This document shows positions 62,292-62,363 of a stretch of DNA of 64,000 bases, one piece after another. The stretch lies in the sequence record NC_052662.1; one strand, written 5' to 3'. Positions within the stretch are counted from its first letter, which is position 1. The number at the start of each line of letters is the position of its first letter. A program made the translations under genes and the position numbers. The notes beneath the pieces were generated by a model. It was not told the origin of the DNA, ran no database searches, and saw only the letters and a list, made by a program, of their open reading frames with translations. This DNA is from Escherichia phage Mt1B1_P17.

Positions 62292-62363
62292 GGTATCCCG
62301 TGCTGGATTCGAACCAGCATCACAATAAGTTGTGGAACTCTTATCCTGTAAGTCTAACGGGAA
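62292..62363 (-). tRNA. tRNA-like element with non-canonical anticodon region
   Basis: Canonical T-arm GCTGG-TTCGAAT-CCAGC and 6 bp acceptor pairing, but no 5 bp/7 nt anticodon stem-loop found. Confidence 0.3.

Follow-up and report, generated by a model that had tools for sequence, protein, structure and literature searches.

The small RNA mascRNA is a cloverleaf with a shortened anticodon arm; RNase P and RNase Z set it free, and CCA is added to it. RNAC and RNAD of phage T4 measure about 120–140 nt, longer than the element described below, and are not simple cloverleaves. Both are small RNAs that a phage tRNA cluster encodes besides its tRNAs, and what they do is still unexplained (PMC3014915, PMC9697503). 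YrlA is presented as a tRNA mimic in passages of one report (PMC4201824), and sections of two others deal with phage tRNAs set against tRNA-targeting defences, namely the T5 tRNA-Lys directed against PARIS and the anticodon-loop variant hypothesis (PMC11464382, PMC10264068). Beyond a role as codon supplements, the tRNA clusters of phages are now being interpreted as weapons in a struggle for the tRNAs of the host. Here we describe a tRNA-shaped element of 72 nt in the tRNA cluster of Escherichia phage Mt1B1_P17 (NC_052662.1; the window is the whole stretch of 64,000 nt that was analysed). Like the entire cluster, it lies on the minus strand, at 62363..62292 (nt 1 = 62363, nt 72 = 62292). Sequence comparison points to a family of RNA genes that is new and unannotated, derives from a tRNA and does not decode; comparative support for selection on its fold is good. 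We consider it rather probable that the element encodes a small RNA shaped like a tRNA but unable to decode, that it descends from a phage tRNA-Arg(CCU) and that its fold is under selection.

Of a tRNA, the element retains the upper half: the acceptor stem, U8-A9, a D-loop in which G18-G19-A20 occur, a T arm of canonical form and A73. A short hairpin stands where the 17-nt anticodon arm would be, and its loop measures 3–5 nt and is free to vary. Read 5' to 3' (62363 to 62292), the sequence is UUCCCGU UA GACUUACAGGAUAAGAGUUC CACAA-CUUA-UUGUG AU GCUGG-UUCGAAU-CCAGC ACGGGAU A CC (parts in Table 1). Its host gap of 78 bp (62288-62365) runs from tRNA-Ile(GAU) to tRNA-Met(CAU) and includes a 5' spacer of 2 nt (62365-62364), after the encoded CCA of tRNA-Ile(GAU), and a 3' spacer of 4 nt (62291-62288), before tRNA-Met(CAU). 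This is the tight packing with 2–4 nt spacers that an earlier note on this DNA had described. The same note had recognised the acceptor pairing, which we find to consist of six Watson-Crick pairs plus U1.U72, with A73 present, and the T arm GCTGG-TTCGAAT-CCAGC, located at 62318-62302, with the 5-bp stem and UUCRANY loop of a canonical tRNA. In the canonical D-stem register (10-13/22-25), G18-G19 are present and pairs 12:23 and 13:22 alone survive. No 5-bp stem with a 7-nt loop exists in the element, as the earlier note had also found, and the canonical anticodon loop, which includes U33 and purine-37, is absent. Its minimum-free-energy fold (RNAfold) is a cloverleaf whose "anticodon" hairpin carries a 4-nt loop (z = -2.7).

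The tRNA predictors behave accordingly at this interval. ARAGORN makes no call on the element in default mode or with -ps, and at the 80% threshold it returns only a "tRNA-Ser(ACU)" with a T stem of 4 bp and two of the five anticodon-stem pairs broken. Taken together, its relaxed modes (-ps, -ps80, -ps60, introns, mitochondrial) gave low-quality and mutually inconsistent calls (Ser-ACU, mt-Ile/Met-UAU, mt-Val-CAC and an opposite-strand Arg) and were set aside as evidence for a decoder. The Rfam tRNA model (RF00005, gathering cut-off 29 bits) reaches 25.2 bits in an 82-nt scan; its alignment covers acceptor stem, T arm and a portion of the D arm, whereas the anticodon arm is deleted. In a 2.1-kb scan at E<=10 the element was not matched, and a search of it with all Rfam families gave nothing meaningful besides tRNA. 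By comparison, the flanking tRNAs score 50–72 bits and 10 real tRNAs nearby 37–72 bits. The cluster contains 11 perfect T-arm hairpins, and only that of the element does not belong to a recognised tRNA (eight of the others are found by ARAGORN and two by Rfam). ARAGORN reported no transfer-messenger RNA (tmRNA) in the window, and the element is 72 contiguous nt. The YrlA model (RF02553) does not match the element; its weak match (22.8 bits, with a cut-off of 69 bits) falls on the Ile-Pro tRNAs. The earlier note had proposed relaxed tRNA prediction and covariance-model scoring as checks, and since no tool gave a canonical cloverleaf with a defined anticodon, the observation of a non-canonical element stands.

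Over its final 2 kb, the window shows 99.8% identity to Escherichia phage WPEC4 and 96–99% identity to about 65 phAPEC8-like myophages (~150 kb; genus Phapecoctavirus, subfamily Stephanstirmvirinae). A near-identical cluster (96–98%) is also filed under non-Escherichia host names (Campylobacter phage B15, Pseudomonas phage PsgM04F, Acinetobacter phage ABPW7 and Klebsiella phage ZCKP1), labels that may stem from contamination or mislabelling and need not indicate a broad host range. By BLAST, at least 76 phage records contain the element itself at 93–100% identity, and almost all of them belong to phAPEC8-like phages (Phapecoctavirus). It recurs in five Vequintavirinae (A73, W70, A7_1, UPEC06 and LTH01; 80–84% identity), where it lies directly 3' of tRNA-Tyr, and in phiEB49, a 47-kb siphovirus of the Drexlerviridae (78% identity), where it lies directly 3' of tRNA-Arg(CCU). 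A family covariance model built from 12 distinct copies (R1) scores 79–99 bits on family members and 98.9 bits on the element of the window. A search with R1 did not find the element in three related phages: Justusliebigvirus PD06, which belongs to the same subfamily as Phapecoctavirus, Eryne, which has a related tRNA cluster, and Klebsiella phage K54_rec3. Scans of IMG/VR, a metagenome collection and GTDB genomes for the D-hairpin motif returned only phiEB49, more Phapecoctavirus contigs and chance matches, and relatives with a different D hairpin would escape such scans. No match was obtained in a 28-Gb collection of E. coli genomes, and therefore no host counterpart is detected at BLAST sensitivity. 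Judged by eye, the small open reading frames (ORFs) downstream of the element in phiEB49 (gp62) and A73 (A73_155) and a 98-aa ORF of the window are not alike, which gives no sign of a common neighbouring protein.

None of the Phapecoctavirus or Vequintavirinae records examined annotates the element as an RNA gene; a few of them (WPEC phages, ETEC-TG, EP57, UPEC06) place the coding sequence (CDS) of a hypothetical protein over it. The phiEB49 copy is annotated as "tRNA-Val" and called tRNA-Val(AAC) by ARAGORN; the Rfam tRNA model gives it 24.6 bits and leaves its D and anticodon arms unaligned. The same model finds no match in the Vequintavirinae copies (A73, UPEC06). For Phapecoctavirus Ro121lw, part of the published account lists a "pseudo-tRNA #4" as one of the tRNAscan-called genes (PMC6454146). 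This is probably different from the element's interval, which bears no annotated feature in that record. In the literature, we found no description of the element or of anticodon-less tRNA-like genes in phage arrays.

Support for the fold comes from covariation among these copies. The alignment A4, which was fitted to the model, holds 13 distinct sequences from three clades, and with relatedness left uncorrected, 94.2% of its cells are standard pairs, versus 36–44% when the 3' partners are slid by 1–3 columns. Six pairs change on both sides, and they are distributed over the acceptor stem (2:71, U-A / G-C; 3:70, C-G / U-A), the D-like hairpin (11:28, A-U / G-C), the anticodon-like hairpin (two pairs of the stem) and the T stem, the first pair of which is G-C / A-U (A-U in Vequintavirinae) and G.U in phiEB49. 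By eye, CGUACU-UAACA-AGUAUC of phiEB49 corresponds to CACAAC-AUAUC-GUUGUG of the Vequintavirinae, with three compensatory pairs if a one-base register shift is allowed. Two alternative stems had been offered in the earlier note for the region between acceptor and T arm. One of them, CACAA/UUGUG with a 4-nt loop, is the hairpin that covaries; the other, ATAAG/CUUAU with a 10-nt loop, shows zero compensatory change and is broken in the Vequintavirinae copies.

The most invariant block of the alignment is U8-A9-G10...A25, which hardly changes over the three clades. The best fit to this D region is a bulged hairpin of 6 bp (G10-C29, R11-Y28, C12-G24, U13-A23, U14-A22 and A15-U21, with the loop CAGGA and a 3-nt bulge), which is 100% paired and includes one compensatory swap. 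We also considered the canonical-like D stem of the minimum-free-energy fold (10-14/24-28). With 87.7% paired, 8 unpaired cells and zero compensation, its support falls short of that for the bulged hairpin, although the window sequence itself may adopt it.

Outside the family, R1 finds its top matches in the tRNA-Arg(CCU) genes of Drexlerviridae (phiEB49 41 bits, ES 40 and Rogue1 38.6), while all other tRNAs tested remain at or below 31.5 bits. In alignment A5, the element is colinear over its full length with these tRNA-Arg(CCU) genes, thus suggesting descent from them. Both have U8, G10, the D-loop ACAGGAUAA (with G18, G19 and A20) and almost the whole T arm in common, as well as the 3' acceptor strand (GCGGAAC/ACGGAA), A73-CCA and the flank ACCAAATTAAG; the copy in phage A73 also has its downstream flank AAATTAAG in common with phage ES. 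Compared with tRNA-Arg(CCU), the outer D-stem pairs are lost and the bulged hairpin stands in their place, the anticodon stem is displaced, the 7-nt CUCCUAA loop of the tRNA is gone and, in two clades, the 1:72 pair is lost as well. A14 has become U in the element, whereby the stem can extend into the former D loop, and the outer pairs are re-made with bases three positions downstream. The position of the phiEB49 copy directly after tRNA-Arg(CCU) fits a tandem duplication. The two neighbours are 67% identical, and since this similarity is moderate, we hold the origin from a phage tRNA-Arg(CCU) to be likely rather than proven.

Several other explanations have to be weighed. The earlier note had considered an unusual decoder, and the element could in principle work as a tRNA whose anticodon loop is unorthodox, such as a frameshift or suppressor decoder. 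The tRNA-Val(AAC) that both ARAGORN and the record assign to phiEB49 would fit this idea, and a 7-nt loop can be drawn in the Vequintavirinae copies if the C-G closing pair is opened. However, the loop is CUUA or UUUA (4 nt) in most Phapecoctavirus, the window included, CUA (3 nt) in phiWec188 and one metagenomic contig, AUAUC, GUAUC or GUCUC (5 nt) in Vequintavirinae and UAACA (5 nt) in phiEB49. If 7-nt loops are forced, RNAs that agree in acceptor and D-loop features receive different nominal anticodons (AAC, UAU and UCU), and in the Vequintavirinae these loops lack U33 and purine-37. The phiEB49 copy, moreover, scores just the 24.6 bits mentioned above, with its anticodon arm unaligned. Because the loop is 3–5 nt long and varies in sequence across clades, and even between close relatives sharing the acceptor stem, we regard a decoder as extremely improbable; as far as the sequences tell, decoding by the element is excluded. 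It is hardly credible, either, that the interval is not an RNA gene and instead forms part of a protein-coding ORF or a DNA-level site such as a recombination or homing target. The CDS features in the WPEC phage, ETEC-TG, EP57 and UPEC06 records point in this direction, as do ORFs of 50–59 aa that cross the interval on both strands, but these ORFs run straight through bona fide tRNA genes and are therefore artefacts. The substitutions track RNA helices and not codons, and both strand and spacing fit a tRNA array.

It is possible, though in our view unlikely, that the element is a tRNA pseudogene or relic: a duplicated tRNA-Arg-type gene minus its anticodon arm, now a harmless spacer that folds and is processed and leaves the maturation of tRNA-Ile and tRNA-Met undisturbed. 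The "processing spacer" proposed earlier is a possible variant, which would also need the element to keep a harmless, processable fold. Among 10 Phapecoctavirus copies, nine sites of the element are variable (seven substitutions and two loop indels), compared to one in tRNA-Ile and four in tRNA-Met, so the constraint on it is weaker than on a real tRNA. Two variants affect the elbow (G18 is replaced by A in ev052, and the T loop of ESCO25 has 8 nt). Pair 1:72 is mismatched in Phapecoctavirus and nt 72 is lost in Vequintavirinae; the 3' tail is ACC or ACA among Phapecoctavirus copies, which thus do not encode the full CCA found in the Vequintavirinae and phiEB49 copies. The element is missing from Justusliebigvirus PD06 and from Eryne, and its tRNA score is below threshold. 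All of these points weigh against a selected fold, and to them must be added the uncorrected relatedness in A4, the moderate similarity to tRNA-Arg(CCU), the chance that some compensatory changes could be older than the loss of the anticodon loop, and an RNA-level picture (expression, processing, binding) that is inferred throughout.

However, a relic does not readily account for compensatory changes in four helices across three phage families, nor for a D region that is nearly invariant. Eight of the nine variable sites lie outside the helices and the ninth turns an A-U into a G.U pair (P = 0.003, uniform model). Between Phapecoctavirus and Vequintavirinae, the element is 80–84% identical and the shared Pro, Gln, Gly and Tyr tRNAs are 58–81% identical, so it is conserved between clades as real tRNAs are. 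Eroding helices and structure-indifferent substitutions, the pattern of a decaying pseudogene, are not what we see. Its occurrence in three genome backgrounds that are unrelated to each other (a 47-kb siphovirus and two subfamilies of myoviruses) implies that it was transferred and then retained, and useless DNA is quickly deleted from phage genomes. Because of the compensations, the helix-avoiding polymorphisms, the between-clade conservation and the presence in three backgrounds, we favour a selected fold. The description as a "decayed tRNA" given in the earlier note is apt as far as it means derivation from a tRNA, the element being colinear with phage tRNA-Arg(CCU), but simple decay does not fit helices that are compensated and spared by polymorphisms.

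Table 1. Parts of the tRNA-shaped element and features of its surroundings in the window
Feature	Coordinates	Strand	Remarks
Acceptor stem, 5' strand UUCCCGU	62357..62363	-	pairs with 62295-62301; 1:72 is a U.U mismatch
U8-A9 and D-like hairpin G-A-CUUA-CAGGA-UAAG-(AGU bulge)-U-C	62335..62356	-	G18, G19, A20 in loop
Hairpin replacing the anticodon arm, CACAA-CUUA-UUGUG	62321..62334	-	5 bp, 4-nt loop; stem covaries, loop varies
Canonical T arm GCUGG-UUCGAAU-CCAGC	62302..62318	-	perfect T-arm hairpin
Acceptor stem, 3' strand ACGGGAU, discriminator A (62294) and CC (62293-62292)	62292..62301	-	no full CCA encoded
tRNA-Ile(GAU), upstream neighbour	62366..62439	-	ARAGORN; Rfam 72.2 bits
tRNA-Met(CAU), downstream neighbour	62209..62287	-	ARAGORN; Rfam 50.1 bits
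Sigma-70-like promoter TTGACA-18-TATAGT (11/12)	62787..62816	-	upstream of tRNA-Gly; consensus match only
Intrinsic-terminator-like hairpin and T run	62075..62093	-	after tRNA-Met; ASO2A annotates a terminator at the matching place

The promoter-like sequence before tRNA-Gly and the terminator-like hairpin after tRNA-Met (Table 1) place the element within a predicted Gly-Gln-Pro-Ile-element-Met transcript, in which it would be co-transcribed with these tRNAs. In E. coli, tRNAs are matured by RNase P, exonucleases and the CCA-adding enzyme. By analogy, RNase P would cut 5' of nt 1 of the element, and its cleavage 5' of tRNA-Met would free the 3' trailer; exonucleases could then trim the end to ACC and the host CCA-adding enzyme complete it. 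The product would fold as an L-shape through the D-loop/T-loop elbow, with elbow and acceptor end intact and the anticodon absent. Without an anticodon loop, it would have no adaptor role on the ribosome and would act, if at all, as a bound tRNA mimic.

One may speculate that such an RNA keeps occupied, or titrates, a factor recognising the acceptor/T/D half of tRNA, of tRNA-Arg in particular; ArgRS and a tRNA-targeting host nuclease or toxin are conceivable partners. The main determinant of E. coli ArgRS, and its first contact site, is A20, and the identity set of tRNA-Arg for this enzyme comprises A20, A/G73 and C35-U/G36 (PMC9976931). A20 and A73 are invariant in the element family and C35/U36 have no counterpart, so that the identity set is incomplete. 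The two invariant residues make ArgRS, or another host factor directed at tRNA-Arg, the elbow or the acceptor, a reasonable though speculative candidate partner. A more specific idea, which we put forward as quite doubtful, is that of an anti-defence or host-takeover RNA: a tRNA-Arg-derived mimic that has lost the cleavable anticodon loop and kept the surface formed by the D-loop A20, elbow and acceptor. It would then decoy a host factor docking on this surface, without being cleavable itself, or inhibit it competitively. Under the same tentative proposal, possible targets are ArgRS and, from an anti-phage system, an anticodon nuclease or a toxin acting on the acceptor end. If true, this would explain the horizontal spread among three unrelated coliphage families.

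The cluster harbors a second unannotated tRNA-shaped element at 63247..63171 on the minus strand, between tRNA-Asn (63255-63340) and tRNA-Thr (63090-63164). Its sequence, GGACUUG UA ... CCAG-UC-GCC-AAGA-GGC-UU-CUGG AAUU GCAGG-UAUCGAAU-CCUGC CGAGUCC C, forms an acceptor stem of 7 bp and a T-like hairpin whose loop has 8 nt; where an anticodon arm would be expected there is a long hairpin with a loop of 4 nt. Neither ARAGORN nor Rfam matches it. It is conserved in 88 phage records, including Justusliebigvirus, and the Eryne homologue displays compensatory changes in T stem and acceptor stem and has the central hairpin swapped for a different one. This second element, which is unrelated to the first, would make anticodon-less elements a class of phage RNAs; its presence in the same cluster suggests that such tRNA look-alikes are perhaps recurrent in these arrays.

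All tRNA genes of the cluster are on the minus strand. Eight are found by ARAGORN; a tRNA-Tyr(GUA) at 63350-63434 and a tRNA of the Ser(UGA) type at 63659-63745 come from Rfam. The former scores 39 bits in Rfam, and the latter, a long-arm tRNA, is caught only by the tRNA-Sec model (37.4 bits); both are missed by default ARAGORN and annotated in ASO2A. In tRNA-Met(CAU), next to the element, the first acceptor pair is a mismatch (A1.C72 as aligned by Rfam). Its D stem is 5 bp long and its D loop 9 nt, and within the genus a U-A pair of the T stem is replaced by C-G in a compensatory manner. The GenBank records of WPEC1/2/4/6, ETEC-TG, EP57 and UPEC06 place CDSs of hypothetical proteins over the tRNA cluster, the element included; the ORFs of 50–59 aa concerned, at 62159-62511 of the window on both strands, look spurious. 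The 98-nt spacer between tRNA-Gln and tRNA-Gly (62604-62701) forms an inverted repeat that is long but imperfect (AAAGGGUUGCCAGAA...UUCUGGUUGCCCUU), and its fold energy is -24 kcal/mol; phage nieznany has a repeat_region annotated beside tRNA-Gly in the corresponding spacer. A 12-codon ORF (MSKRESFLATLY) with a GGAG-type ribosome-binding site is found on the plus strand at ~62658-62696.

We could also observe differences between related clusters. In many of the Phapecoctavirus relatives, an additional ~93 nt separate tRNA-Pro from tRNA-Gln (ASO2A stretch 1024-1116); this insert has no T arm and is not tRNA-like in appearance. It is absent from the window at 62523-62527, and BLAST matches of those relatives therefore come in two pieces. 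Eryne (stretch 1654-1799, minus strand) and PD06 (stretch 3168-3286) have an uncalled tRNA-like gene next to tRNA-Met, with a normal anticodon arm, UAUGG-CUCCAAA-CCAUA (anticodon CCA = Trp), a T arm, CCA and an oversized D region with an extra hairpin; ARAGORN does not report this Trp-type gene. In UPEC06 (stretch 477-569), just downstream of the element homologue and before tRNA-Pro, there is a degenerate tRNA-like stretch with the T-arm-like GGAGUUCGACUCUUC, which the Rfam tRNA-Sec model scores at 19 bits (E = 1.9).

The element family is missed by standard tRNA finders, and its members keep the enzyme-docking half of the tRNA and discard the decoding half. If functional, the element would be a small and easily testable phage-encoded tRNA mimic, and together with the second element it would mean that the "gaps" in phage tRNA arrays merit a systematic covariance-model search. 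Even as a relic, it would explain the recurrent "intergenic" gap of 78 bp, the dubious "tRNA-Val(AAC)" of phiEB49 and the spurious hypothetical-protein calls.

Among the known systems, the element most resembles a paralogue of phage tRNA-Arg(CCU) and, in kind, RNAC and RNAD of T4, which are small RNAs of a phage tRNA region; no evidence of homology between these two and the element was found, though no search aimed at it was made. Like the element, the tRNA-like domain of tmRNA, YrlA and mascRNA imitate the acceptor/T/D half of tRNA and lack a functional anticodon loop. However, the domains of tmRNA and YrlA are parts of larger RNAs with other modules, unlike the element, and mascRNA is eukaryotic. 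The T5 tRNA-Lys type resembles the element as a gene of a phage tRNA cluster that is perhaps valuable against host tRNA nucleases and not for codon supply. These are complete decoding tRNAs that replace cleaved host tRNAs, whereas the element might, speculatively, be at most a decoy or inhibitor. With ordinary phage tRNA pseudogenes, finally, it shares the derivation from a tRNA, the sub-threshold score and the missing or mistaken annotation. Unlike them, it forms a conserved family in several clades, with compensatory changes and a remodelled, stable architecture.

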